Below, one piece after another: positions 21,835 through 43,664 of a stretch of DNA of 64,000 nucleotides. The translations under genes were made by a program, and so were the position numbers. Origin of the DNA: Auanema rhodensis (taxonomy: Eukaryota; Animalia; Nematoda); contig OZ059896.1 in assembly GCA_964057225.1 (NCBI GenBank), forward strand, positions 8,122,001 through 8,186,000. Reading direction: 5' to 3'. Each line of letters begins with the position of its first letter. Within the stretch, counting starts at the first letter, position 1. Below the pieces are notes generated by a model. The model saw only the letters and a program-made list of their open reading frames with translations. It ran no database searches and was not told the origin of the DNA.

Positions 21835-22266
21835 CTGTTTACATAAACTCTATGAAACTGAAATGACGAAAATATATATTTTACAGAAAAAACGGATTGT
21901 TATTTTGAAAAGAAGAGAATCAAAATATATAAACTTAGAAGAATTATATGAATTAAAAGTATAAAAGTATGGTTAATAGTGTTTGAAACAGAAGTATTTC
22001 TTGAAAAAAACCTTTTAATCTGTATATTAGATATAAGAAATGTTCGAACAAATGTTGTTTTCATCATTAAGATTGTGTCTAATAAGTATATTCAGATAAA
22101 TATTATAAACTATTCTCTTCATTTTGCTAGAATATTTTCAAAAAACTATTTGCCCTTTTCATATATTTTGATAGTATGTAGAAAAACTATTATTTTATAT
22201 GACCCACAGATTAGTATGTTTGAGGTGAGACAAAGATTTAGACAAATTCGAGTTCAAAACACAATA

Positions 22267-22269
<3 letters not shown>

Positions 22270-22340
<71 letters not shown>
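22270..22340. repeat. (TC)n microsatellite
   Basis: Direct reading of the sequence. Confidence 0.95.
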
Positions 22341-25300
22341 TTCAGTTGTAACTTCAATTTGTTGTTAGAATCATTTATCTATTTTTACTACATTCAAAGT
22401 ATTTTTACTAACCTGAAAAAACCAGTTAATTCATAATTCAGTATGCATAAACTTGAAATATACTATATGTATCTTTGAAATATATAGGTTCAATGTGTGG
22501 ATTATAAAATACTTTTAGTTTTCTTTGAATATATCAAAGTTAATTATATTATAAATTAATATAAATCATGACAATTTCATTATTTTTTCCTTATTTATTT
22601 TAAATTTTATTTCTCATTTTTACAAGTTTTTTCTGTTAAAGTTGAACAGAAAATGTTACTTCTTAATTTGCCAGCATAGAATAGAAGTTTATGTTATTCA
22701 AAGCGCTTTAGTACTTATTTCCATTTTAGGTTGTGTATATCACAGCAAGGATATTCAGTATAAAATACACAATATATAGTAAAATATCTTTATAAATAGA
22801 AGATATTTAAGATATATTTTCATATATTTTTAATCTCAAATCGTAGACATTCACGATTATTTGAGTATTGAACGTCGATAAATGATGTAGTTTGTTGCCT
22901 TTCTACTTCTTCTAATGTCTTAGCTGAAGAATAATATCTGAACAATGAATTTTCCCAGGTATCTTTGAGAGAAAATATCTTCTTCTGAGCCTTTTTTACC
23001 TATTTTGTGAATTGTCCGTATATTGAGTGCGATTAGTTATTGAAAAGGGGGAAATATTTAACTTTAAATCCAGATGGGAGACCTAAGCTCATGCAGAAAA
23101 GACAGAGGGTCACATAAAAACGGGGAAAGTAGTCAAAAAGATAGAAAAATTGAAAAAGATGAAAAGATAGGAAGTATTGAGAGAGGCTAAGAAGTTGAGA
23201 TAGAAAGAAAGAGAATTGAGAATTGAATAAAGGCAGAGAAAAATGGGAGAAAGAGGAAGAGAGGGAAAAAGAAAGAACGAGAGGGAAGAAACGAGAAAGC
23301 CTTTAGAGAAGTGCAAAACATTCTACTTCTGCTATCCAATAAAATGAACTCTGCTGTAGAGAAAAACACGAAGTGCACATATTCTCGACGAGACACAGCC
23401 GACACAAGCACTGTCCCGCTTACCTATCTCGACTCTCAATTTCCTCATCTATCTCTTTATTTTTCATTCTCTCTCAAATCTTTTTACTGCTTTTCACATG
23501 AAATAAATAATATTTGAAATAAGTTTTTCATTTTTTTTTATTATACGACAATGAGTAAGTAAAAGTTAAATGAGTGGAAAAGCTGTTCAAAATTTCAATG
23601 AAAGAAAAGTCAAGGACAGCAAAAAGAAATTACTTGTCTTCTTATTTGGTAAGTACAAATTTACATAAATGGCTCTTTTGACTGAGAACGAACAGAAAAC
23701 GAGACGAGTTTACGAATAAAGAACAGGAAAAGAGTCAAACATGTACCAACTTGAATAGATACTAAAGCAAAACAATTTGAACTTTTTCAACTTTATATGA
23801 AGTATCGGATGCCTTACATGTTATATAGTATAGTCTTAATCATCAAATAATAAATATACATATTATCAGCAATTATCATTTATATAAAATAATTACTTCA
23901 AAAAAACTATTTTTATATAAAAATTAAAAAGTTATAAAGTGATTTTTCACACACACATATATCTATATACTATATTGTTTTATTATTATATAATATTTAT
24001 ACATAAATTATATATTAAATCATGAAAATCTCTCATTATGTTTCTGTTATCATTTCAATTTAACTAAGATTATTATCTTTTAGTCTTTTTATTCATTTAT
24101 AAACACATATATATGATTATTATTATTATTATTATTAAATATATATGCTATTATTTCTTAATTTCTTAATTAAAGAAATGATAATAATGTTTTTAATAAT
24201 ATATGAATATTCGTAGTTAAGGCAAATATATATATATATAAATTTTATATATATATATATAATATCTTTTTAATATTTGAACAACAAATAGAATTTTTAG
24301 AACTAAAAATAGTTGTATAATTCAAAAATATAAAAGTTTGTGTTCAATACGACGTACCTATGTACATATACATATGGCTAGACTAGGAAATTCATTCCAA
24401 TTTCATGCTTTGATGATTGGGCCAGATGATATATACAATGAAGGCTTCCTTATAATATGAGCATATTAAGAAATAGTATTATTATAGGAAATTATGTAAA
24501 AAAATTAAAATTATAAATTATTATAATATTTAAGATTGGAATATTTTTAAAAAATTAGCAATTATAGAAACAAAATTTATAAAAAAAAGGTGTTACTCGT
24601 CGTTAAAGATAATTCATTCTGCATCAGAAAAATATATTGGTTAATTATCTATTTTCTTATTATAATTAATCAATATTCACATAATCTGTGAAGAAAAATA
24701 AGAAGCTAATATTACTTCTAGAATATCATATCAGTAAAATTGTGATTGACATTAAAAGTGAAAATGAAAAAAGCTGATTACTTGTCTTTATAAAACAAAT
24801 GAAAAACTAAAGTTAAAATAAAGATAATTGAAAATAAATTAATACTAAGAGAAGATTAGTACATGCATGAACTTGACAGAGTTTTTTTTGTTTTATTTAA
24901 ATAGTTGAAAAACCAAAAAAAAACAAGAAGGAGGAAAGGATTCTTATATAGAATAACATAAATTTTATTTCTACATAGATCATTTTTGCTCCAACATTTA
25001 CAACTGTAGCATAAGATAGTAACAGTTCGTTAGTCGGTCAATCAGATGAGCACACATCACAACTTTGTGTGAACGACCAATGTTACATCCGGTGTTAAAC
25101 AGAAACATTCATAAGACATATAGAAACATATATTTAGTTCAATAGATACATATAGTTAATATAGTTAGATATATATATATATATAAATTGAAACGTAAGG
25201 GTTGCCTTGCAACTAACCATATCATTCTCATTTGCTTTCTTATTCCCTTTTATGTCATGCATGTATACACATATTGAATTCCGAAAGAGCATAAGGTAAG

Positions 25301-26039
25301 TAATAATTATATTGTATTATCTTAAAAGATAGAAAAATTTTTAAAAAGCTTTTTGATGAAAAATTGAAAAGAAATCAAAAAAAGTTGAAATGGAGGGGGG
25401 GAGTAAAAAGCTAAACGGAAAAGAATGGAATTCTTAATAAAACAAAACTTGTGAGAATATTCGTAATAAAGTAGAAGAATTCAGCTTAAGAATAGAAATA
25501 ATTTGAATACCGATTCTTTAGATAAGTCGAATATAATAAATGTTTTAGAGCTAATAAGGATGTGAAACTTTTATGAAAAACAGACAATTTGTTATGAAGT
25601 AGATAGGATCATTGAAAGAAAAGAGATAACAAAAAAGTGTGAAATACAAGGTAATTGAAATAAAATAAAAGATAACAGAAAAAAAAGAAAAATAGAACAC
25701 GAGGTATATGTATATGAAGAAATAAAGAGAGAGAGCGAAAGAGAGAGAGAGAAAGAGAGAGAGACGAGAGTAAAAAAGTATAAACAATGAAAGAGAATGA
25801 GAAAGAGAGAGCAAAAGGTTAAAAAGTACGAAGAAATAAATGCTGCCATCTGGATAAGATAAGAACATCTGGTATTCAAATTGAGGAAAAAATCGAATAA
25901 TGATTATGAGAATCAGAAACATTTGTCTAGACTTAATTGTCATCATTGATAAGCTGTATGAGGAATAGAGAGACAATTTGTAGCTTGAATAAAACAGTAC
26001 AAGGAGTAGCTGTATGATTAAAAGAATGACGAAAAGGAA

Positions 26040-26190
<151 letters not shown>

Positions 26191-29100
26191 ATCTTGAACT
26201 GATTTTGAAATTTAAATTAATTTTAAATAATTTTATTTATAATATAACATTTAAAGTTTGTATTCGACTACATCATGAACATATATAATATTTTATAAAA
26301 ATACGTATTTGCATGAATATATGATATAACATGAGATGATGAATTCACAAGTACTTTTCTTATATCAATTAGAAGGCTGAATTGAAATTACAAGTCTTGA
26401 ATTGGAAAAAGCTCAAATGTTGAAAAATGATGTCCAGATGTTTCACGAATTTACAAATGCAACATGTTCTTGTCAGAAGATTCTTCAAAATATTTGAAAC
26501 TAACGATTACGCATGTCTACAAGTAACTTGTCCAAATGATTTCTCTATTGATATCAACCATACTCTCCTCATCGCTTTGGAAAATGATAATAAGACGACG
26601 TGTCAACTATATAAATACTATATAAATTTTGATATTATAATATAAATAATAGATAAATATAACAGTATCAGCATAGTCTATAGCATAGTCTATTTTCTCT
26701 TTCTCACTCACTCTCTCATAAGTCAAACAAGAAGGATTTTTTTGGGGGGACGTAGATGCGGTGATGCCGAATCTCTATCCATCTTTCTGTTTTATGTTAT
26801 TTTAATTTAGTAAATTATTATATAGAAATCAGTTAGATTCACAGACTGAAGAACCGATTGGAAACATACTACTCATTACAACAGAAATTATACATTAAAA
26901 ATTATATATTATGATAAGATTTATAAGAAATATAAGGAACTAATAATAAATGGAATCATTTACTGTTCTTTTTCGAATAAATATTAAAATTTAATAAAAA
27001 AATTTAATAACATTGAATATATGCTATATTCAACATACACGCTTATACGGGATAGGATATAGAGAAGTTTCAATTTTTAATTTTAAAAGATTATAATAGG
27101 AAAAATATAATCAGTGGCACTTCCTAGACATGCTTTTTTCATTCACTGGTCGTTTTTCTTTTCTTTTTTTTATATATATCTAATACAAAATATACAGAAA
27201 TATAAAATAGAATAATTTGTAAAATGAATGAAAATTGTAATAAATAGACTGATCAGACAAATTTTGAAGCTCAAGTTGTTAACTACACAGCTTTGATCAA
27301 GAGCTTGAATGTTGCATGAAAAGCCAATCACTATTATTATTATGTATAAAAAATATTGTAGAAATTCATTTTTCTGGCTATAAATTACAAAAAAAAATAT
27401 ATTCTATAGAATAGCAAAGATATAATATTGAATAGAAAGATATATGTATGTATGAGCGATTATTCTGATGTGAGGGACAAAATTTGTTTTAAATGGAAAC
27501 AAATCATGAATTAAAATATGATAAAATTAACTTTTATATTATAATATAATTAAATATTTTAAAAATTGAATAATATAGTTATAATAAAATTAAAATTGTG
27601 TAGACATATGAATGTATGTATGTACATACATACATGGATGTATGTATGTTTGATAAAAAAAATCAATAAAATATGCGGAAAATGACCGTTTCGTATATAG
27701 ATTAGAATGAAAATGAAAAGATTTTCACTTGCTCACGTAAATGTTTCAGATGTTCATTATGTGACCATGGAGATTGTTAAGAAATAATTAGAGGTTGACC
27801 TTGTGAAAGCAACAACGTATGCAGATGTAGATGTGATGATGTCACAACATCAAACACATATTTTATCAGACAAAAGTTTTATGATGTTTCAACTAAACTC
27901 AAGATAATACATAATAATTTCTTATTTTCATTAGAATACTTGTTTTTAAATTAGATAATTATCTATGGAAAAACTATAAAATGAGAAATTAAAAGAAAAA
28001 ATGTTTAATATTGAGTGTATAGATTATAATATGCTAAATATGAATAATCAATACGGTTATTAAACAGAATTTTAGGAAAATTATTGAAAAAAAAGGATAT
28101 GAAGAAGCAGCATTATTACCAGTTTCGAGTAATAGTTCTAACAATAATGTTCACTTAGTGACTTGTTATGTGAATTACAACGAATACATCAGATAAAAGT
28201 TTTGAATATAGGCTTATAGGCCGGAATAGAAGTAAATTACAACTTATTCTTACCTTATAAAAATTTTAATTATGTAATTATATAAGTAATAAATGTATAT
28301 ATATAACCAATATAAGTTAAAAAATTAATAAAAAATTAAGTTTGAATACAAAAAAATGACAAAATATTTTACTTTATTTATAAAGTATAATGACGTAAAT
28401 TTATTTATTTTGTATTTAAAGTACGATGAAGTAATCATCAAAAAAAAGAAAGGTTGACGTAGTAAAGCAGTGCTTTGTGACTATTATGATGAAAAGGTTA
28501 TTTTCATGAAAGAAACAGGATGCTATCAATCGAAAAAACATTAAATTGGTCAATCAACTGAGGGTTATCACTGAAAGTGTGACAATAATTGCAACATTTC
28601 ATTAGATTTTTGAGAAAAATATTAAAAAGAAAAACACATATATATGGAGTTATGCTTATATATGTTTGCATATATTAGTAACAGCTAGTTTTTATAATTT
28701 AAAATAAATTAAAAAAATAATAAAAATTATAATATTATTGTAATCGGCACATTTAAAAAAAATAATATCCATATGTATATTTGTATCACTTTTCATATAA
28801 TTGTTATTATTTTTGTAAAAATACTTGATATTTTCAAATTCGAAAAAAAAAAAATAAAGATGTATAAATAAATTTTAAAAATTTTATATTATATATTACA
28901 AATAGAAAATTACTATGAATACTATAGCATATACACATGTAGGATGGTGTATACATACATTTCTTACTTAAGCAAACAGTAATCGAAACACTAGGATACG
29001 TCGGCAGATATAGTATCGTTTTGAATACTTTTTCCAAATATAATAGCAAAGTTTTAAGTAAAAATGTATATTAAAACTTTGTTTCATTTTATTTAGGAAA

Positions 29101-29883
29101 TAAAATAATATTTTAATACGTGAGATATAGCATATCACAAATTTATAATAGATTATAAAAAAATTTGAAAAAATATTTCAAACGAATTTTAATAAAATAT
29201 AGTTTAGAATGGAAGAAAACGATAAATATAAATATGATTCTAAAAAAATATACACTGAGAATGATATACGTTAAGTTCGGCAATTTCATGGGACGGATGA
29301 CCTATGTATGTTACAAATCAACCTATCATTCAATAATTATAAGAGAATTCATTGACTATACAATAAACTTTTTGATTATGATAATCAGTCAAGAAATTAT
29401 TTGTGAAATACTTTTTTTAATTAACAAAAATGTTATCTAGTTATTGGGTAAAGTGCATTTCGTGGAGGAGAATGAGGGGCAGAGGAGATAGTCCGCTTGT
29501 GTGTATGTGTCTGTGTATTTGTGAACGACGGAAGGAAAGGGAATGAATAAGAGTTGGTGTATGTATGTTAAAAGGGTTGAAATAGAATATATATTTAAGA
29601 GAATTAGAAGAAGAGAATTGAAAAAGAGAGTGCAGATGAGGAAGAACGAAAGAGGAATGAAGAGAGTAAAGAGACATGTTGTGGGAGGGGGGGGGGGGGT
29701 TATGTTGCCAACATCAACGACAACATTGGTCTCTGCAAATGAGATAGAAGGTATGATAGAATATGTTACTAAAGAAGAGCGAAAGAGATAGAGAAAAAAG
29801 GAGGTAGATTGAAAGAGCAGACGGGGATAAAGATAAAATAGAACCAGATAGAAAGAGATCTGAATGAAAATATGAGAAATATA

Positions 29884-29968
<85 letters not shown>
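29884..29968. repeat. (AG)n microsatellite
   Basis: Direct reading of the sequence. Confidence 0.95.
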
Positions 29969-30491
29969 AAAAAGATGAAAAGGTTGGAGCAGAAGTAGAA
30001 GATAAGGATCCCAATGAAGGAGACTATGAGAACAATATACTAATCATATAATTAAGGTTTCAATAACCGATTATTAATTTTTTTAAATTTCAAGTATAAT
30101 ATTTGGTTATTAAGATGAGAAAAGATTATTAAGAAAATTTGAAGAATATTTTGAAGAAATAGTAATAATTGAATTAACTAACAACTATAGAGACTTTATA
30201 ATATAATATATGTATGTATATATATATTATAATAATATAATACAATTGTCATTTTAAGCAATTGAAATGTCACTATAATCATTTAGACAGTTAATATTTT
30301 ATTGAAATATTATCATCATCATCATCTTCTAGTAATATTATATAATATAACTATATTAATAATTCTAAATATAGTTAAGATTATACGTTTGTATCTGAAG
30401 ATGAAATCTGCTTTCCATAAATTTTATTCATTTTAATAAGGGAAATATTATTCTTTATATAAATATTTATATAATTTGATATATTTAATCT

Positions 30492-30533
<42 letters not shown>

Positions 30534-31030
30534 AGAAAAGATTTCTTAAACGAAATTATTAAGAAGAAATTGTTTTGTTTTCAACAAAAAAATTATAAAT
30601 AGCTTAATCAATTTGATAAAAATTAAAAGTTTAAATAGAAGCGTATGTAAGCTATAAGAAAACTAAGAAGAAATGACGTTTTTCTTTCTCAAAAGATATC
30701 TTAAGATCATCGAACAAACCGTCATCATAGTCATTCTTAACGGTTTCATGATGTCATCGTATTTTCCTATAGTTATCGAATAAATGAAACATTTCATTTT
30801 CTTAAGAATATTAAAAAAATATAATTAATATTATAATTAATTTATATAAATATAATAATTATATTATATATAAAATAATTAATAGGTATTATATAATAAG
30901 AAGTAACAACTAATAGGAAACCAATGTTAAAGACTTAGATCATCAAAATGTATTATTACAGATATTTTTATCTTCTTTTTTTTTGAAATATTTATTTGGG
31001 TGCATCCCCTTTTCTCTATCTTTCCTTTAA

Positions 31031-31054
31031 TCTCTCTCTTTATTTATCTCTCTT

Positions 31055-31091
<37 letters not shown>

Positions 31092-31119
31092 TTATCTCTC
31101 TCTCTCTCTATCTTCTCTC
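31031..31119. repeat. Imperfect (TC)n microsatellite
   Basis: Direct reading of the sequence. Confidence 0.9.
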
Positions 31120-32345
31120 ATATACACTAGTTTACTTTCAACCACCAAAGAAAGTTTATGACCCGAAGTAGAGAAGAATGGAAACATGGATACCCTGTAC
31201 CTAATGCTGAGACTTTTGGAAAATCGTTATGTTCTTCGTATGTTAACATCAACTTCATCTCATGCATGCTACTTCATTTCCTGTCGACAGTTTGGGAGCC
31301 GAGTGAAGAGAAGACTTTTACATGTTTCTCTCTCAGTTCATTATTTCTCTCAATCTCTTGTTAGTACCTGTCTCATTCAATGTTGTTCTCTTTCATTCTC
31401 CCTCTCTTAGATTTTCCTCGAGCACACAGTTAGTCGGTCTCTTCCGTTTGAAGTGGGTCCTCTATCTTTTCCAACTTGCCTAACATAATCCCCTTCTGCA
31501 ATCATCACAATCTTCATCTAAGTCTCAACATCATTATTAGCTTCATGAATTGTACCTTTCATGTCGTTTTCAACTTTTTTTTTATTTGCATGCCATTATC
31601 TGAAGTCATTTTATCTCTCACGTCTTCTATTGACGATATAAACATCTCAATCCCTTTAACGTTCAATTTTCATTGTGTGCTTCCCTTTGCCAACTAACAT
31701 ACACACCTGTCCACCCACATATATTGTTAACCTCTACTTTCATTTTCCACGTTTACCACGTGACATTTTATTTTTATCTATCTTTAAATAGTTCTCTCAA
31801 TCATTTCTTTTCCCTCATACCATTTGATCAAAATGTGAAACTTTACAATTTAATATTTTAAAACTGGTTGTAAATCCAATACTAAATGTTATAATTAGTA
31901 TAACCAATTACAGTTACATATATATTAAATATTCTGATGTAATTGAGTTATTCCATTCTATATTCTACAACTACTATGACTATTTTTCTCAAAAGTTTTG
32001 TAAGTTCTTCAATATCTACAAAAGCCATCTGATCGAGCAGTTTTCAGCTGCAAAAATCATATTCAAATATGTCAACTTCAAGACTTCAAGTCAATAGTTG
32101 ACATTTTTCAAAGAATAAATTTTTATTTCTTTTTCTTTTTCTAAAATATATATATCAATCAAATCTTTTTGTTTTTCAAATTTATAATAAATGCATGTAA
32201 ATGGTCGATATTCTTCTGAAGGCCATCAGAAGGGCAGAGACCGTCAATGTCTATTTGACGTCAATGAGCCATGTAAACAATGCATTTGAAATTCCACATT
32301 GATGATATGAAAGTTAGAGTAAAAAGCCTTAACCATATACATATA

Positions 32346-32589
32346 CAGTCCTGTGCGAAATAGTTGGGACAAACACAGTACTCTCTCGTATGCTATGAAA
32401 CAAACTACAAATGACTCAGAAAAAATAGTATGAATATGAAAGACTCCATAGCATCAATCAAGGAGTTTTTTAATCAATATGTTGCTACTTCAACCTGAAA
32501 ACTAAATTAAATTTTTTGATTGGTTTGTAGTTTGAGTTTCGCCGTCTGGCCTCTCTTTTTGGTTGTCCCAACTATTTCGCACAGGACTG
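32346..32589. mobile_element. 244-bp non-autonomous Tc1/mariner-type MITE
   Basis: Perfect 27-bp TIRs CAGTCCTGTGCGAAATAGTTGGGACAA (32346-32372) and its reverse complement (32563-32589). TA target duplication on both sides, CAGT terminus as in Tc1/Tc3, internal IR CAAACTACAAA/TTTGTAGTTTG, no transposase. Confidence 0.92.
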
Positions 32590-34342
32590 TATGTATCAAT
32601 TGTATGAGCAATTTTTAAAATATATACATGTATGTATATATATATATATTATTCTGAAATATATTGTGTCATTCGTATTTTTTATATAAATGACAAAAAA
32701 ATATCATCATCACACAATTTTCTTTCCTACAATTTGCTCACAATTACAACAATTTTGAGAGCAAATATTCAGAATAGAACAAATTTCCACAACTATTTTA
32801 ATTTGTTTTAGCAGTATTTTTCACTCAATCTGTATGTCTACTGAATATCTTCAAACTTTTGAAGTATAATGAATCTAATTATCCAGTTTTTCTTAGGTGA
32901 TGGTGTGAAGTACGAAATATATTAACTATAACTAATCGAACATTTTTAGTTGAAATCACGAAAGCAATTATTTCGTACCTTTTTCTCGATATATCTGCAA
33001 AATAGACAGATTCCCTTAATATCTGTATAAAAGCTAGATTCATAAGATTTAGACATTTCTGTTGCCATGGGAATGCGAATTCTCTCACATACACATACAT
33101 ACATGCACATACCTCTAGGCACGGATATCCGTAGATTCGTCTACTTTCAAGAACTTTTAAGAATAAAGTTCAAAACCTGACGTTCAGAGACGATGAAAAT
33201 GAAAAATAAAAGTTATTTATTCATAAAATCTTATTATGTTTCTGGAGAACATTCGTTTATATAGTATATTTAACACATAAATATTAATATATACGAATAT
33301 ATTTTCTATTTTATATATTAATATTAATATAACTATATATATATAGTTATATTAACTTAATATATATTTTTATTTATTTCTTTTTTTTCACATATATCTT
33401 CAATCATTCTTATGTTTCTTTTCTGATTTTTCTTCTATTTTTTTGAATCATTCATTCATACTCAATATTATATTTATATTCTCTATACCATATTGGATCA
33501 AGTTAAACAAGAACCAAATGAAATAGCCATTATTTATTTTTTGAAGCTTAAAATGATTTTTATTGTTTTTTTTTGTTGAATTCAGATCGATTTTAATGTT
33601 ATTTTTTGAGCATATGCACTATATTTCTTATCAAAAGTATTTGATACAATCCTATTTATTTTTTGATGAAAATTCGTAGTTGTGCGTGCGTAGGAACTTG
33701 GAACGCAGCTATAGAGCAAGTTAGAGCAAATATGCGTTCAACTATGTTTCTTCAACGTTATAAGCTGAATTTTCATTTGAAGCGAATGTCATGCCTGCCT
33801 CTAAAGAAAGAAACAGCTACTTATTGAAACTGGCAATACTTCTCTTGTATTTTCAAAGCATTTTCTACAAATGAAAATAACAATTCTATATCTTTTTCGT
33901 CTTTTAATTATAACATATAGTATAAATTAGCATAATTTTGCTACTACCTTAATACTATGATAACAATTTACTAATGACCTTTGTTTGATTTCTCGGTGTC
34001 ACAGCTCAAACAAATGAAGTTGAAATTAGTGATTAAAGCTTTGAATTTTTCTCAAAGTTTTCACATGAAACTATTTAATTAAGAGCTTATTAAGCACTGC
34101 AATTCAACTTTATTAACATTATTCTTGTAAGTTTTTTCACATAGTTAGCATGTTTACTATTCTTAAGCTTTCAGCATACTAGTTGAAGTTACTATATTTA
34201 CAGTTGAAAGCTTTTTTACATTTTATTTCATTTGATTCCTTCATGATTTCTTTCCGAATTGAAGAAAAATATAAATAAATATTTAACTTTTCTACACTAA
34301 TATAAACAAATGGCTTTTATTTTCCAATGTTGATCATGACAA

Positions 34343-34349
34343 TCATCAC

Positions 34350-34385
<36 letters not shown>
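34343..34385. repeat. (CAT)n trinucleotide repeat
   Basis: Direct reading of the sequence. Confidence 0.9.
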
Positions 34386-37300
34386 ATGATGTGATACTCT
34401 CACTTGTCTTCAATTATACTTACTGTTTCTCTTTCTCTTTCTCATTCTAGATCTTTTCTTTTCCTCATTTTTGTTCTCTTTTCATTTTGTTTTCTCACAT
34501 TTTCTTCGCATATACTATATTTCCAATTGCTTTTCAGTCTTTTCTTCTGCTCATACATGTATGTATTACCAAATTTGCAAAAAAAAAAATTTTCTTTTTG
34601 CTTGCAATCACCAGCTTTTTATTCTGTGTATTTGTTCCTATTTGGTTCGATTAAACAACTTCACAAACAGACTTCATAGAAATCGACAACAGAACCTCCA
34701 CGCCTCAAATCATCTCATATTCCTAACCATATTTTTCGTTCTCATTTCAGAAGAACAAGTGATATTACAACAAAAAAATCCATTTATAAATAGCATGAAC
34801 GATTCAACTTACTGATCTATTTTAAATTTATTCTTCGTTTACATTATCAAATCATGTTTTTCATATCAATATTATCTCTAACATAACATAAATTTTCAAA
34901 ATGAATTCATCAAACTTTTTTTTTCCGAAATAATTTTTATAAATTCAAAAACATTTAAACGAATATTTTTATTTATTTTAATTCTTAGAAACCAAACATC
35001 TTTCTTATCTTATCAATTAATTTTTGGATAATATTCCTTCTTTTCATATTTAATCCGCATAATTTGGAGTATCAATTCTCAAAAATTATATATTATATGT
35101 ATGAATGTCTTTACAATGCTAGAAGCAATACTCTTTTTTCATTTTAAATATATCCGGTTATATTTGATTAGGCCAGGTTGAAATAAAAAGACAACGAAAT
35201 AACGATACAGATAATAATTTCTCAACTCTGTTCTTTAATATATTCTAAATTATTTTTTTGTTTATTTATATGCTTAGCTATGAACAACTGCATTTTAGTA
35301 AGTAATTAAGCATTACTATATATAAGTAAATCTATACATATCTATATTATTTCTCTTTTAACAAAAATTCTATCTCATTGTTAACTAATATCTAAACAAA
35401 AAAAAAGGAATACAAGGTTCTGACATCATGCTAAAGTTTTTTATTGTATTTTCTCCAATTTACAAGCAAAAAAATCAACAATTCGCATACATATCTCGTC
35501 TTGTCATACAGAAATTTTTTGTTTCTGTTACTATTACGTGTCAACTATTTGATGAAGAGATTAAAACATTTTCACGGGGCAAATACAATTTAAAAGTTTG
35601 ATTTTTTGATGTTATTGTAACATTCAAAAATATTTCCGCAATTTTTTCAGAAACTTTTAAAGAAGAGTGGTTTCGGTTTTTTCATTGTTTACAATTTACT
35701 TTTTAATACATAATTAAACAATTAAATATGATATATTATACATATAGTATAACTATACATATTTTTAGTCTATATATCTATATATATATATATAAAGATA
35801 TATACAATGTTTAATTAATATATTATAATATGCTTTATATCCTTAGCGAATGTAATCTGAGCTTTTGGTTGGGCTATTCCTTGAAATTTAGAACAAACAT
35901 TCAAAACCTCAAAGGAATTCTTCTATTTGTATTTTCATTACTTTTCCTTCATATTTAGTATAATTAAATTGTTTTATAGTTACAATAATTTCTTTTTTTC
36001 ATTAATAGAAATATTTATTCTCTTACCTTTCTTTGAAAACAAATAGAAACAAAGAAAAAAAGGAATTTGAAATCCTAGAAAGAATTCAACCGCTCATCAA
36101 TGCTAGTCCGTTAGTAAAATAAAATAGTTTTCACGTAGCAAACACGTAAGTAGTTGCAACAACCAATTAAATTCCAAGACATTTCATGAAACTAAATATA
36201 AACTTTTTTTTTCTTTCAAACAATTCAAAAAAAAGTGTATCAAATTCTGAAATTGGATCAACTAAACTAATATTTCTCAGAATGAATATAATATAATTGA
36301 ATCTTTCAAATTGTATATGTATAGTTTAAAGTAAAATATACATTATTTTATTTTTTTTATAAAATATTATTTCATTGCCATAGTTATATTATCTAATATG
36401 CTTCATTAACAGTACTACTATTATATTGATATACTATTATATGTATTAATATAGTGTTATAATTCGTCTTTCTTATTACGATATATCAAAATTGTAGAAA
36501 TATGAGTTTAGAAAAGATTTCTAATTGAGAAACAACTTAAAACATATATAATCTATAATATTTATTATAAAATATATTATTTTAATGAACTTATCTATAA
36601 TACAAGCATCGTTTATAACTTAACCATTAATCTTTATCCAAATTCTAATTTATTTTAAAAGCTTTACTACGTATTATTATATTTGGAATTAGATATTCAT
36701 TCATCGTCAATTTACCTTAAAGATGAGATGATCCGTATAATGTTTTCTGATTATCAGATCATTTTAAGCTATCTTATTTGTCATGAATTTTTCATTTCAT
36801 ATTATCCTCGTTATACTCTATCATTTAATATTTCCACAATTTTCAAGCTGTATATCAAGTTTTATTTAAAACTTAATAGCATAGTTACTGTTAACATAAA
36901 AAATTATATAAATAATATATATATTTATATCACAGTATACTATATATATATATTCATTTCGAACTTATTTTTATGATAATATTTGGAAAACTATGGTTTC
37001 AATTTATTTATATTTGCATCTATATACATATGCATATATAGGTATATGTATATACATATGTCCTCCTACGCTATACTGTTATATCCAATTCCTATTTTCT
37101 TATTTCTGATTTGTTCTTCTTCTTCCTCTTCTTCACATTTTTTACTTTATTCATATAATAAAAAAATATTACAATATGACCAAATCGACAAAACTATGTG
37201 ATTCATAAACTGACATAGCATAACGTTGATAATGTTGATATCTTATTCTCTCAATACTAATGTGACAAACTCATGACGTATATAGATGTACGTCAAGTAT

Positions 37301-37920
37301 TTTCTCAGCATCATGGATTGAAACATAAGTTTTCATCCAAAAATATACAGCATGTTGTGAGTGTGTGTGTGCGAAGTTACATCAGCATCACTCTTTTTTC
37401 CTCTTCATTGTAATTGCGTCTATTCATCTTGCTCGTCGAAGAGATTCCGGAGAAATTACACGATAATCTCTAAAAATTACTGTTATAATTGAAGAATGTT
37501 TGTTCAATAGTTACAATCACATATACAAAGAATGAGACTTGTGACGACAATCTCTTGTTTGAAACTCAAATGCTGAATTTACGCAGCCTAGGCTTTAAGT
37601 AATAACATTAGCTTCATCATCATTCGTCATCATCGTTATCATGAACATCGTCATCATTTATTGTCTTCAGTCTCACATTGCTCAACCATATTCTTGTTAA
37701 AACAATTCGTTATCTTTCATGTTGTTCTATTAAACTAAAAGAAAAAAAACTGTGAACGATTATATTAACACAACATAATGTTTCTGCGGCGTCAGCACAA
37801 GGAATTAAATCTTCATTTGTTATATTAAACTTTCATCATTTTGTCTTGAATTGTTACTTTGACATCACTTTTTTCATAATCCATCCAATGCTGTATTAAC
37901 CAGATTCATTTCAGTAATAC

Positions 37921-39588
37921 ATGGCTTCTGAGCCAGAAACTCAATCAATCTTTCAAAAGATATGCTGTTGTTACAGTAGCACTTCAAAAGAGCCTCCAGT
38001 TGAATTAATAAGAAGTAAGAAATCATTATGTTATACGTCAAAATCAAAACAAATATATTAAAGCTCATTCGATTGCCGGGCCAACGACACAAGTAGCTAA
38101 AGAAAGCGTTGATGGATTTGAAGAGATTAACTTAGGTAGCAATATTTTCTTTCTTGAATACATGTATAAGATTTGGTTTTTCTCTTGATATATACATGTG
38201 CTTATATGATAATCATGTTTATCATTATAGAGAATAGAACAAATGGTGTTGAAAGAACTAACGAATCTACTACTCTTCCTGCTGTGCAAGAAGTATCTGA
38301 GAAAGAAAAATCTATGAATGATGATTTTACTATTAACGATATCATGATGGATGAAATTTGCGGAGAAAATACTATTGATGATGAACATGAAGTTCCTTTG
38401 GTTGAGGTTAGTTGTTCCAATTCATGTTAAAATTCAAAACCAATCATGTTAAGGATGGAATTTCCATTCATACAAATGTAATAGAGGAGGTAGATGAGAA
38501 AGAACTGGAAATGATAAAGGAACAATCATTCAATACGGAACGGCAAAATATTAAGCAAGTTTCTGATGATACCCCAACTGAAACTGAGCGATCAACTGAA
38601 GAAAAAGTATCTATTAATCAAGTGCTCAAAGAGGTTGGCTTTCAAGCTTGAAACAACTTTGATAAATCGTTTTTAAGGGTTATGAATCCCCAGGTCGATC
38701 GGAAGAAGTAGTATTAGAAACCAAAAAAACTGCGGAATCATTGGAAAAGAAAGATTCAACACAGAATCCTTTGAAACCAGTGACTGAAAAAGAACATGAA
38801 AATGAGAAGCAGGAAGAAAAGAACCAGGTTTCTGGTTTTGATCAAAAATCATCAAAGGAAGATAGTGAGAATGCTGATGATAAGGAATCAGAAGAAGGTT
38901 TTTAATTTCATTTTTTCTGAAAGGATAACTAGTAAATGATATTTAGGAATTGTCGAAACATCTAGATCGTATTCCACAACTGATGTTGCTGCTTTGCTTA
39001 GTGCTCGACCAGACGATGACGATGATAGCGAAGATGAGATTCTCATAGAAAATGTGTCACGTAAGAAAATTTTAAAAATATTCATAAGATTTATGAGTTT
39101 TAGCTCGGGAAAATCAACCTGTTATTACTGTAAAAAGTCAATCAACAATGTATGCTGAATCATCAGATGGTGAGGAAGATGAAGAAGTAGAGGAAGCAGA
39201 GGAACTGGAAATTATAAGACCACCTCGACGGCCAAAATCCGCTTATACTAGTGATAGCGGAAGTCAAGAATCTGAGTCAGAAGGAGAAATTGAAGAAATT
39301 CACCCAGTTCCATCACCTCGTAGAATGATCTCAAGTCGAATAGATGAAAAAGCTGCATCTGAACCTGAAGCTTCGGACAAGGAGGAAGGAGTTGTAGAAG
39401 AAGTAGATAACTTGGAAAAGCCTATCAGTCTAGTGGTTATGAGTTCTGCTTCCGAGAAGGAAAACGAAGGTGTTACAAGACTCTCCGTTAAAAGTGATGG
39501 TCGAGCTGCCGTAGCAAATGGAAATGTACGAGTAGCCTTGGACATTAGAGATCTAACAGACGATGAATTTTCAGAACAATTAATTTAA
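37921..39588 (+). CDS. Uncharacterised acidic, low-complexity protein with an N-terminal Cys cluster
   Basis: TTTCAG acceptor, then MASEPETQSIFQKICCCYSS..; about 7 phase-consistent GT-AG exons, strongly E/D/S-rich, ending ALDIRDLTDDEFSEQLI*. Confidence 0.75.
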
Positions 39589-40161
39589 TTCATGCAAGAA
39601 GAGAATAAACTTTGGATGATAATTATCTCAAAACTTGGCTTCTTTACATTGGTTCCGAATGATAACCTGTAATTCTGTATTAATGGACAATCATCATTCA
39701 AACGTTTATCATCAAATTATCAGAAGACTAATGTTTTTCGGGTATCATGTCATAATTTTAACTTGCAGAATGCGTAGTTTATTCAAGCTTTTTATAAATT
39801 AATATTGTATATGTATGTAAGTATATTACTTTATATGCTTATATCAAAACCAAAAGATTATATATGTCATTCATCTTGCTACTATATATGCTCAATTAAA
39901 GTTACTAGTTAATAAAAATATATTTTGTTTATCATTTTCTTACGACACATTGAACAGACACACAACTATAACTGGAAAGTTTATAATTGTGTGTGAGTGA
40001 ACAGAATCACACATATGCAATTACCTCATGAAAATACCAGAAAAATAAATCACGAAAAATAGAATTCCCAAAAATTAAAAAAAAATAGAAAATCTAACAC
40101 TAAAGTCAAATTTGGAACAAATAAAAAAATTAATGGAACAAAAGGACCCGAAACCTTGACA

Positions 40162-40931
40162 CTACTGAAACTGGTGACCAATTCTTCTACGACGTTCATT
40201 ATTGGGAGCTTTCGTTCTGTCGATTGTAGAATCGAAAAATCGTGCTAAAGCCATGGATGTCGAAGATCCAGGAGGAATTTGTTTTCGACAATCCACATTA
40301 ATTCTGAACAAAGAAAGTACAGGTGAAAGTAGTGGTAAGAAAACAAATTGAAACCTGTCGTACGCTAGAGGTCCACGATGAGGAGCTAGATCTAATTTGC
40401 ATCCAACAATAAGCACAGGGATATGACATGATTCTATATCAGCACTGATAGTTCTAGTTGAACCAACAGGTCTTGATTTACCATCAAGCAATGAAAGCCA
40501 TTGTCCTAGATTCTAAACCATTTATGATAATTTTGTAGGACATTTGGAATATAGACCTCCTCGCTTTTCTTATTGCTTAAATCGTGAACTAAAATAGCAC
40601 CGGCTGCTCCATCTAGCAGGACCTGAGATGCGCTACGATGAGCTAAAGTACCTCCTATATCCCATAATTCCATAAGTTCAGAACGTTGTTCAGCAGTTCC
40701 TTAATTGATATAGATACAGGAAATTATTATAAATATACCTGCTCTATATTCATGCCAGGCCATACATATTGAAACCCCAATAGTGCTCGGAAATCCTTGT
40801 CCTGGCCTAAAATTCTGACTTATAACACATCAAGGATAAATCGCATCATACTTTCCAGCTACCGAATTTACAAAAGAAGTTTTTCCAACCTCACTTTCAC
40901 CAAGTACAATGATTTTCGTTGATGACGACAT
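40162..40931 (-). CDS. RABL3: Rab-like GTPase 3
   Basis: MSSSTKIIVLGESEVGKTS (P-loop), STIG, ELWDIGG, ILVHDLSNKKSEENLGQW, PVLIVGCKLD; no CAAX; 5 exons. Confidence 0.9.
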
Positions 40932-41507
40932 TAGTTCTTCTACAAAAAATCATCAAATCAAGCAACAAAAAAAAATTATTACATTTTTAATAACTTCTAA
41001 GCACAAAGAGCACGATCCGCACTCGAAAATTCCAACGTCAACTATTTGACTGACTTGTTCAGGTGTAATCAAAAAATTGTCTCCACAGCGACAAAGTTCT
41101 TCTATAAAAATTATCAACTGCATACGAAGTAACTGTATGACCAACCAATAAAATCTTCGTCTTCGTCAATCTCGATTGATTCTCCGATAGTTCCCTTATG
41201 TTCTCTTAAACGCTGTTCAATAATCCAATTATCGTATTCTTCACGACGATTTTTATCCTACAAAAAAAATAAAACGATGAAAAAAAATTATAATAAACTT
41301 TCAAAGTGTTCCAAATTAATGTAGCTTGTCCAACAGCAGTAGCGTCACAATCTTCGTGTTGTTTGTCTGGATGAACCTAAAACTATATCAACTTATGATA
41401 ATTTGATAACTATTTCTAACCTTTCTTAAATAGGCGAAATACGCTTTTTTTATTACGTCTAATGTAGCAGATTCTTCAATTCCAAGGATATCATAAAAAC
41501 TAAGCAT
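40931..41507 (-). CDS. DNAJC24: DPH4/DNAJC24 J-domain + CSL zinc-finger diphthamide biosynthesis co-chaperone
   Basis: MLSFYDILG..IKKAY..HPDK J-domain, CRCG and CGSCSL zinc finger. The inferred last intron 40982-40940 gives ..LEVIKNKN* (TAA 40933-40931); without it the ORF stops at 40953. Confidence 0.9.
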
Positions 41508-41786
41508 TACGCTAACATATCTAGGAATAGATAGTTAGAAGTATTTTTCAGAATGATCGAGAGATATCATAATTGCTTCGACAATTTCTAATATTTTGAG
41601 TAAAGTATAAGCATGTAAATATTCATTAGATGAAGAATGAAGGTATTTCGAGACAAATAATACAAATACCTGAGATCAAAATGGGGATAAAGAATCTGAC
41701 TAAGACATTTTCTACACGTAGAATTAAAATTTCAAAAAAATTAAAAATTATGAGTAAACTAATGAGGTCTTTGGAGAGTACACATT

Positions 41787-43136
41787 TTAATCCGGACATT
41801 CAATACTTGTTAAAGGTACAACCGGCCGTAATGGCCTTTCCTGTTCATCGTTAGAAATTTCCTCTGGGTCACTATTTCTTCTATCAACTCCGAACTTCAA
41901 AACAATCATTAGCGCAAATTTTCTATTATTTCACAAACCTTATAACTGGTATTAGCATATTGCCCCAGACAAGGGCAAGAATCTAACAAAAATGTACAAA
42001 ATGGTCTACGCATTGCAAACCACCAAACATTTCCACCTCCATTACCAAAGCATAGCAATATCATACAGAATAATGAGAACCACAAGGGGCATAAGACAAT
42101 CTGAAGTAAACAGTTATAAATTTATTATGTGGCTTAGCCTAACAGAGTATGGTAGTTTCGCGGCTGGTTCCTTGTCTGTCCATTGTAGTGCATCGAGTTT
42201 TCCAGTCAGCAATATCAAACAGATTAATGCAGGTAACACAAGAAAAGTATGTAAAATAGCTGAGTAACAACTTTGTCTAAAACTATATATTTCTTAATTT
42301 CTAAGATAAAAAAATGTACCTTCTGTATGAATGAAGCAAATGCCGAGAGCGTGCAAGAACTATAGTTAAAACAAGGGAATAAAGAACTCCTACTGCGCTT
42401 AATGAAAGAACAATCCAAAGCGGAATAAACACTACTGCCCAAGACCAGTTAACCTGCTGGTCCAACTTGAAGGATATGAAGAAAAATTCAATTACATTGA
42501 CAGCATAGAAGAATTCGAACTGCAATGAACTATATCAAGATTGAAATAAAACTGTTGAAACTTCAAAAGCTTTTTCATGTTTCATGGACCAAACAGCAAC
42601 ACCAAGTGCAAAAATAGATAGGCCAAACACAGGAGCAAATACAATAGACCAATGAAGAATAGCTTCTTTGGGATCATGACTATCGTACTCTAGCTATAAA
42701 GGATATTAGTAGTTATTCAAATATTAACACACCTTATAATAAGCCAAAATTTCGAAAGATAACAAGAACATATGTTCTACTGTTGTTAGGAGCATAGCCA
42801 CAAAATCATTGCGAACAATTATATCATTTCTAAAGTAATCATATATAAACATAATTTTATGAAAATATACCTCGATGGTGGCCTAACAAAGAAGGAGATC
42901 ACACCAACTAATGCTCCAAGAAAAACGATACCATGGCATATCCACAAAGGTAGAAAAATAATAGCATAATTTACAACTATTTTCTCATCGAGCCGCAAAG
43001 ATAAGAGAACGACAAATGTTAAAAGAGATGAATAAAGCACAAACTTTCTAAAAAAAAATTTTAATTTTATATAGAAAATATTAACTCACGAAGCATTGAA
43101 GCCTTTGAACAAAACACCCAAACTTATATCTACCAT
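41787..43136 (-). CDS. TMEM185: TMEM185-family multi-pass membrane protein
   Basis: LFKGFNASKFVLYSSLLTFVVLLSLRLD, IFLPLW, HEKAFEFEFFYAVN, WSWAVVFIPLWI, WWFGMRRPFCTFLL, C-terminal IECPD*. Confidence 0.9.
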
Positions 43137-43282
43137 TATGAATTCAAATATATTTTAGGAAACCCATGTGCATGAATTTCTAAACATATGTATTATGTTA
43201 AGTGCACGTTTAAAAAACGATAAATATATGATATAAACAAATAAGAATAATACAAAATTCAATCTTTAGAAAACTGATTTAT

Positions 43283-43664
43283 CTAATTAGCAGTATCGAA
43301 TTTTTTCAAACAAAGTTCATGCTCCATAAAAAGTTCGATACACTCCTCTCCTCTTGGTTTAGATGTCGATTTATTTGTACATCTCAAAAACAAATCATAT
43401 AACATTAATAAATAAAAATAAAGCATACTGAATAGCTTCTCGTAGGAAATGTCCACAACGATGAGCCAAATTTGACTGCAAACAGGGACAGTCAAGGTTT
43501 ATTCTTCCATCCTCCAAAAAAGTTCCTAAATCCATATTTGATAAATACAAACTATCTTTCTCACCTGGTTCTTTAGGAATGTCTTTGAAAGACTGAAGCC
43601 TCCGCGTTAATTTCTCAGAATGGAAGTTCTTGTCCACAAAATATACTACATTAGAATAATCCAT
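43283..43664 (-). CDS. CHCHD4: MIA40/CHCHD4-like IMS oxidoreductase, paralog B
   Basis: MDYSNVVYFVDK.., DGRINLDCPCL, twin CX9C (CGHFLREAIQC, CIELFMEHELC); TTTCAG acceptor at 43673-43678. Confidence 0.88.

Follow-up and report, generated by a model that had tools for sequence, protein, structure and literature searches.

Gene content and exon structure

The window, i.e. the whole 64,000-nt stretch of Auanema rhodensis DNA that was analysed, contains a DPH4 gene and a RABL3 gene in direct succession on the minus strand, downstream of a TMEM185-like gene. The spliced DPH4 frame, built from the RNA joints, encodes a protein of 134 aa with an HPD motif and a CSL finger, and the RABL3 frame encodes 196 aa. 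The CSL zinc finger of DPH4 matches PF05207 with 31.9 bits (cut-off 29.2), and the J domain matches PF00226 with 25.7 bits on a 30-aa exon, below the cut-off of 27.8. The motif HPDK is encoded in exon 2, and the window DPH4 is collinear with the protein model P0069. Pfam Roc/Ras matches are weak and lie in single RABL3 exons; by our own count, 179 of the 196 residues of the window RABL3 are identical in the RABL3 portion of P0010, an Auanema model. The window RABL3 belongs to the same family as C. elegans Y116A8C.10. The features of the locus, all on the minus strand, are as follows.

41521..41610, minus: intercistronic region between the TMEM185-like gene and DPH4, 90 nt, an ordinary operon boundary, delimited by contig ends
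41521..41522, minus: AG of the likely SL trans-splice acceptor of DPH4
41507..41518, minus: upstream open reading frame (uORF) of three codons (Met-Leu-Ala-stop), predicted to be translated; its TAA overlaps the DPH4 ATG and forms a second TAATG
41421..41507, minus: DPH4 coding exon 1, with the ATG at 41507-41505, the start of the J domain and the sole out-of-frame ATG of the coding sequence (41494)
41299..41376, minus: DPH4 exon 2, HPD motif
41146..41257, minus: DPH4 exon 3, from RNA contig joints
40983..41101, minus: DPH4 exon 4, CSL zinc finger (PF05207)
40940..40982, minus: intron of 43 nt in total, GT..AG, 60% U, cis-spliced in RNA contigs; in-frame TGA at 40955-40953 if retained
40852..40939, minus: shared exon with the final two codons and TAA of DPH4, the RABL3 ATG and the RABL3 P-loop
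40806-40739, 40699-40557, 40512-40355 and 40303-40162, minus: remaining RABL3 exons, from RNA contig joints
39891..40161, minus: 3' UTR of the joined RNA, reaching the contig ends at 39891-39939; GATAAA at 39933 and TATAAA at 39985
40932..41491, minus: ATG-free stretch, exonic bases only, 391 nt between mRNA nt 27 and nt 418

The 15 introns observed are 39-51 nt long with loose acceptors; one of 39 nt (40738-40700, minus strand), which ends in AAG, is spliced in all four RNA runs. The RABL3 3' UTR (to 39891 in run X2) meets the contig end of the neighbouring gene (to 39901 in run X1), and the two genes read as convergent. Same-strand genes are tightly packed upstream of DPH4 (46460-41611, minus strand); by reading, we take these to be an actin-related ARP4/ACTL6-like gene, a CHCH/MIA40-like region and then the TMEM185-like gene. 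A low-GC tract at 22000-38000 with a strong skew that changes sign near 30000 could be a repeat array or an inverted element.

The joined RNA and the stop-start junction

The RNA data consist of contigs from four runs of one study, which is possibly the source of the window itself. The contigs represent spliced RNA because 15 GT-AG introns are skipped in 39700-43300. Each of the four runs contains one contig of 1236-1281 nt that extends from 41522 through every DPH4 and RABL3 exon to 39891-39939. The joint 40983/40939 is present in 4/4 runs with 89 letters on its shorter side. The cis-splicing of the intron before the junction and the presence of RABL3 sequence in the DPH4 RNA, both predicted in the earlier note, are thus borne out in every run. 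At the contig level the two open reading frames lie on one spliced RNA in all four runs and also in a metagenome contig (L002). Contigs are assemblies rather than single molecules, so that one full-length mRNA carrying both frames is likely rather than shown. A sequencing indel that fuses the two frames was rejected as far as the four runs of this study go, since contigs across 39700-43300 are identical to the genome, with no other letters or indels.

The TMEM185-like gene is assembled as a separate contig whose end falls at 41611-41648, where an AATGAA occurs at 41627. The boundary of this gene with DPH4 is unbridged in 4/4 runs, which provides an internal control for the bridged DPH4/RABL3 joint. 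All four DPH4 contigs cease to match the genome at 41522, where runs X1 and X4 have three further unplaced letters, and the 5' end of the TMEM185-like contigs was computed at the acceptor AG (43181) in all four runs. Such 5' ends at acceptor AGs (41522 and 43181) are as expected of SL sites. Short SL tips drop out of contigs, so that even these two likely SL sites show no SL loose end.

The RABL3 ATG (40931-40929) shares its A with the DPH4 TAA (40933-40931), a -1 overlap that was described in the earlier note and agrees with the coordinates. Two codons and the TAA directly follow the intron 40982-40940, and its acceptor is located 8 nt 5' of the RABL3 ATG. Retention of the intron would end DPH4 at the TGA 40955-40953, leaving 13 intron nt beyond it; this stop near the acceptor had also been predicted, with the distance given as 12 nt, which requires correction. 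The absence of a poly(A) signal at this point was noted correctly, as a hexamer search of the junction region found no poly(A)-like hexamer 3' of the unspliced DPH4 stop. AATAAA occurs once within 41850-39900, at 41454, and the ATTAAA at 40991 lies inside the DPH4 coding sequence, 5' of both candidate stops.

When leaders of 8 nt were resampled, 13.9% of them had their first DPH4-frame stop overlapping the ATG; with the leader phase left free, the chance is about 5% by our own arithmetic. The TAATG alone is therefore weak evidence, because such an overlap is not rare by chance, and the real feature is the splice into RABL3 exon 1 rather than the TAATG. As a conserved signal the TAATG was rejected, since the stop/start geometry differs among nematode lineages.

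Conservation of the DPH4-RABL3 pair in nematodes

A search with a 40-aa query matched a fused DPH4-RABL3 model from Heligmosomoides. The two genes are adjacent in 27 named nematode species (clade V, 17; clade III, 8; clade IV, 2), so that the linkage is old, and 35 fused models with differing joins were collected. The CSL finger is cut in 20 of these 35 models. The differing joins and the cut fingers indicate that the fused models patch over a junction that is out of frame. One locus in Nippostrongylus (Q1695_006451) and one in Haemonchus (V3C99_008134) are annotated with DPH4-only, RABL3-only and fused isoforms, and the Caenorhabditis briggsae genes carry consecutive names (CBG00333 and CBG00332). 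TMEM185-DPH4 adjacency is also seen in the fused models P0017, P0024, P0046, P0048, P0078, P0084 and P0123.

In Nippostrongylus the DPH4 tail and the RABL3-frame leader fit one DNA string with a stop-to-ATG distance of +1 nt (0/1000 random pairs), and a gap of +1 nt was obtained for Caenorhabditis, where two species were paired (0/1000 random pairs as compatible). The distance in Haemonchus is about +17 nt (7 and 12 of 1000 random pairs). The frame test found no fit to one DNA string for Ancylostoma in 2/2 cross-species pairs. The linker of the C. auriculariae model, read in the +1 frame, decodes as the RABL3 N-terminus, so that the two frames overlap by 15 codons or more (at least 45 nt); 0/300 shuffles were as good for three of four reference N-termini. 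RABL3-like matches were found at 61 metagenome loci, two of which carry DPH4. L002 is an intronless (spliced) contig in which the two frames overlap by 17-20 nt, and L009 is genomic with a 134-nt DPH4/RABL3 spacer that contains three ATGs. Stop and start are within about 20 nt of each other in five of six spliced or deduced junctions, the exception being C. auriculariae. In L009 (590-760), splicing from a possible donor that directly follows the CSL finger to an AAG acceptor upstream of the RABL3 ATG would join DPH4 and RABL3 in frame.

Pattern matches for nematode DPH4 in prokaryote genomes and viral contigs were confirmed in 0/63 and 0/62 cases, respectively. No C. elegans DPH4 under an NCBI name was among the protein search results. 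A Brugia timori protein of 51 aa (P0121) that matches the DPH4-based profile is labelled ParD antitoxin in UniRef, which is probably a mislabel.

Avoidance of ATG in the DPH4 coding sequence

The ATGs of the spliced mRNA are located at nt 3, 14 and 27, and the next one is the RABL3 start at nt 418. No bin was free of ATG among 328 genomic bins of 390 nt. The window DPH4 has no internal Met, and its out-of-frame ATGs number 1 against 8.08 expected by synonymous resampling (0/5000 as low). In the same resampling, RABL3 has 10 out-of-frame ATGs against 7.6 expected and the TMEM185-like gene has 20 against 18.4. ATG is the most depleted of the 64 out-of-frame trinucleotides in DPH4 (z -4.06; the next, -2.16). 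Possible out-of-frame ATG sites are used at 1/14 in DPH4 and at 30/45 in the two neighbours (10/13 and 20/32; Fisher P 1.1e-4). The Asp, Asn, His and Tyr (NAY) codons of DPH4 end in T in one of eight cases before G, against 13 of 16 elsewhere (P 0.0023); as the T/C choice varies with the following G, the avoidance of ATG is context-dependent. A post hoc dipeptide test (O/E 0.82 vs 1.11) was given no weight.

The nucleotide-level depletion is significant in one of the three DPH4 sequences examined (the window, L002 and L009). L002 alone uses 1/7 sites in DPH4 and 4/16 in its RABL3 (P 1.0), which is not significant. The DPH4 of L009 uses 12/21 sites, without ATG depletion, yet has no internal Met. 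The lack of depletion in L009 is as expected if the constraint is lost once the genes separate, given its ATG-containing spacer, and the combination of undepleted and Met-free suggests that the scarcity of Met may in part be inherited.

The 43 distinct nematode DPH4 parts contain 3 Met in 4911 residues, and all three lie in insertions that look like retained introns; the 50 RABL3 parts contain 110 in 6149. A broader protein comparison covered 126 full-length proteins out of 150 representatives. Met accounts for 5 of the 2189 residues of 17 nematode-motif representatives (5 of 12 new motif-bearing proteins are named nematodes) and for 133 of the 14054 residues of 109 others, assumed to be non-nematode (P 4e-5). 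Met is the most depleted residue in the nematode-motif DPH4 proteins, in which His is also low (ratio 0.55-0.57). On trees of 52 and 112 sequences, with two models with insertions left out, there are 6 DPH4 Met changes against 24.7 expected, two of the 6 lying in fusion joins; nematode RABL3 has 50 against 15.6 expected and is not depleted. These figures are to be read with two limits: the profile used for the DPH4 search came from Met-poor sequences, and 33 of the 109 other DNAJC24 proteins likewise have no internal Met. In Aphelenchoides besseyi (P0132), whose DPH4 has a different downstream neighbour, the DPH4 model continues into a methyltransferase domain rather than into RABL3, and this DPH4 too lacks Met.

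The upstream open reading frame

The uORF begins 2 nt past the DPH4 acceptor. Of the 11 DPH4 models that are extended at the N-terminus, eight (six strongylid or Heterorhabditis species) have Trp or Cys two codons before the Met, and in the same eight models the preceding codon can end in A; the remaining three, from other groups, do not have the pattern. From the protein models, the Trp/Cys pattern would be compatible with a uATG at -7. The start context of DPH4, behind the upstream AUG, has G at -3 and C at +4, and that of RABL3 has C at -3 and T at +4. The case that the uORF is special to DPH4 is weakened by a second one in the TMEM185-like gene, of nine codons and with two ATGs (43179-43134, minus strand), between the likely SL acceptor AG (43181-43180) and the start of that gene.

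Proposed translation of RABL3 from a shared mRNA

DPH4 and RABL3 probably share one mature mRNA, from which RABL3 would be translated mainly by scanning ribosomes, either leaky or resumed after the uORF; we hold this with moderate confidence. Scanning as the route to the RABL3 start is suggested because selection acts against ATG along DPH4. Neither this avoidance nor the uORF figures in the earlier note, and both point towards scanning. Avoidance of AUG over a whole coding sequence is predicted by scanning, but not by SL trans-splicing at 40939 or by reinitiation at the stop. The operon transcript, which is cut after the TMEM185-like gene, would be trans-spliced to an SL at 41521/41520, the eight introns would all be removed, as they are at the contig level, and the RNA would end near 39900. 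Ribosomes that initiate at 41507 would produce DPH4 and terminate at 40931. The 40S subunits that leak past the DPH4 AUG would cross the 391 AUG-free nt and initiate RABL3; or ribosomes may translate the uORF at 41518 first and rescan beyond the overlapped DPH4 AUG to RABL3. The DPH4:RABL3 ratio would then be set at the 5' end, and the TAATG at 40931 would merely be the first stop met by the DPH4 frame. Among the observations that count against scanning are the following: three AUGs in the first 27 nt have to be passed; the close stop/start spacing (within about 20 nt in 5/6 junctions) is not required by it; and the annotations of Nippostrongylus and Haemonchus include isoforms with RABL3 alone. 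More tentatively, the uORF that overlaps the DPH4 start may act as a switch, by which a ribosome either makes DPH4, a diphthamide co-chaperone, or rescans the AUG-purged coding sequence to RABL3, and which would have been kept since clades III, IV and V split. If so, initiation conditions (e.g., ternary-complex supply) would set the DPH4:RABL3 ratio.

Scanning, trans-splicing and termination-reinitiation are mutually compatible and can coexist. In one alternative, a single 3' splice site is used in two ways: cis-splicing yields a DPH4 mRNA in which RABL3 serves as a long 3' UTR, and trans-splicing of an SL to this AG yields a monocistronic mRNA, the source of most RABL3 protein. An AG 8 nt before the RABL3 ATG, an intron with 60% U and the location in an operon are in keeping with this, as are the cis-splicing from DPH4 into the site in 4/4 runs and the three isoform classes of Q1695_006451 and V3C99_008134, although these isoforms may be mere open reading frame calls on one transcript. 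A nearby upstream 5' splice site favours cis- over trans-splicing in C. elegans, and the one 43 nt upstream here should do the same; moreover, no poly(A) signal frees the acceptor while keeping DPH4 intact, and neither the ATG avoidance along DPH4 nor the Met loss is predicted. We regard such a dual use of the acceptor as unlikely. Less probable still is the termination-reinitiation proposed in the earlier note, by which ribosomes ending DPH4 at the TAA would restart on the AUG that overlaps it, in the manner of influenza B M1/BM2. UAAUG is among the viral junctions, and TURBS keeps stop and start within 20 nt (PMC10275272, in part), a range that includes the distances in the window (-1), Nippostrongylus (+1), Caenorhabditis (+1), Haemonchus (about +17) and L002 (overlap of 17-20 nt). 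Geometry and frame vary among these relatives, however, and the overlap of at least 15 codons in C. auriculariae exceeds the limit of roughly 30 nt given in the same source. The window mRNA has no TGGGA 5' of the RABL3 ATG at nt 418, the first copy being at nt 601, and shows no unusual folding upstream of the junction (exon 4 z 0.19; 113/200 shuffles fold as well). UGGGA is the core of the 18S-complementary motif of TURBS. Nor does reinitiation need ATG avoidance as far as 300 nt 5' of the stop or the loss of in-frame Met. Variable geometry, the missing motif and the ordinary folding of exon 4 thus speak against the influenza-B-like restart.

The joined RNA might also be a by-product or intermediate of a simple SL1-type operon, in which the real DPH4 mRNA retains the intron and ends near 40940. 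This would agree with the in-frame stop inside the intron, with the filarial DPH4 models P0077 and P0092, which end like donor-site read-through, with the spliced dicistronic precursors known from Brugia (PMC1657053, in part) and with the invisibility of short tips in contigs. It is hard to reconcile with a spliced path assembled in 4/4 runs beside a true upstream operon boundary that is unbridged, with an unspliced stop that has no poly(A) signal after it and with the DPH4 tails of relatives, which are encoded in the RABL3 leader; it leaves the ATG avoidance unexplained, and we consider it highly improbable, though such an RNA may exist as a minor form. The least credible reading is a true DPH4-RABL3 fusion protein made via other splicing or frameshifting, for which the chance is slight in the extreme. 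The 35 fused models, among which Brugia malayi and Dirofilaria have an identical join, would fit it, but the joins vary between models, 20/35 cut the CSL finger, and the splice in the window retains the DPH4 stop without any indel. A real fusion in the window was rejected on the kept DPH4 stop and on a RABL3-frame stop 9 nt before the RABL3 ATG. The by-product and fusion readings are very unlikely even when taken jointly.

Relation to known systems

Erroneous fusion of genes that lie in one operon is a recognised problem of annotation (PMC7986045, in part). The DPH4-RABL3 arrangement accounts for fused gene models in 27 species, parasites included, and the fusions are probably artefacts. Further background on related systems is available in part from PMC2776167, PMC7668243, PMC5025045 and PMC12410068. 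Nematode operons are taken as resolved to single-gene mRNAs via SL trans-splicing (PMC7896298, in part), and an ancient, conserved pair of genes with a single mRNA as the template for both proteins would, if true, clearly depart from this rule. RABL3 being Y116A8C.10 in C. elegans, the pair is directly testable there. No literature on DNAJC24 with RABL3, or on Y116A8C.10, was found in a search that left subscription papers and key C. elegans operon papers mostly outside its reach. CBG00332 and CBG00333 are absent from 12 files of the C. briggsae TEC-RED supplement (PMC9258526), and the pair is absent from the two files searched of the PMC9984361 supplement.

SL1-type, alternative and dicistronic operons of C. 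elegans have reportedly been described by Blumenthal, Davis and Garrido-Lecca (2015) and by Morton and Blumenthal (2011). They have in common with the present pair the lack of intercistronic space and, within an operon, a 3' splice site that closely precedes the AUG of the second gene. Unlike in those operons, the cis-spliced joined RNA is assembled here, and the selection on the first frame suggests that both proteins come from it. Delayed reinitiation controlled by uORFs is known from yeast GCN4 and mammalian ATF4. The likeness is that a short cap-proximal uORF could send ribosomes past a near AUG to a distant one; in the nematode pair, however, the skipped frame is a full conserved protein gene rather than an inhibitory uORF. 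With the TURBS systems (influenza B M1/BM2 and caliciviruses; PMC10275272, in part) the pair shares UAAUG and close stop/start spacing, but neither motif nor structure was found in it, its junction geometry is variable and its first frame avoids AUG throughout.

The closest working likeness is to the scanning-translated bicistrons of green algae (Duenas et al. 2025, PMC11892635, in part) and to stoned and Snapin of Drosophila, which are cited there. AUG depletion before the second frame is a published signature of scanning bicistrons in that source. The shared characters include a short first frame, a short 5' UTR, AUG depletion, unrelated partners and long conservation. The nematode pair differs as the last unit of an SL-resolved operon, in that its frames are joined by a spliced intron and in its uORF overlapping the start of the first frame. 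The weak-ORF1/strong-ORF2 pattern described for the algal cases is not evident (DPH4 has G at -3 and RABL3 has C at -3). Context-specific avoidance of ATG in an upstream coding sequence offers an easy way to screen nematodes for further hidden bicistrons. The fly gene CG2911 is presumably Dph4. Among the Drosophila genes, 159 dicistronic pairs have been listed, and CG2911 and Spec2 have a common promoter and 5' UTR (PMC4528330, in part).
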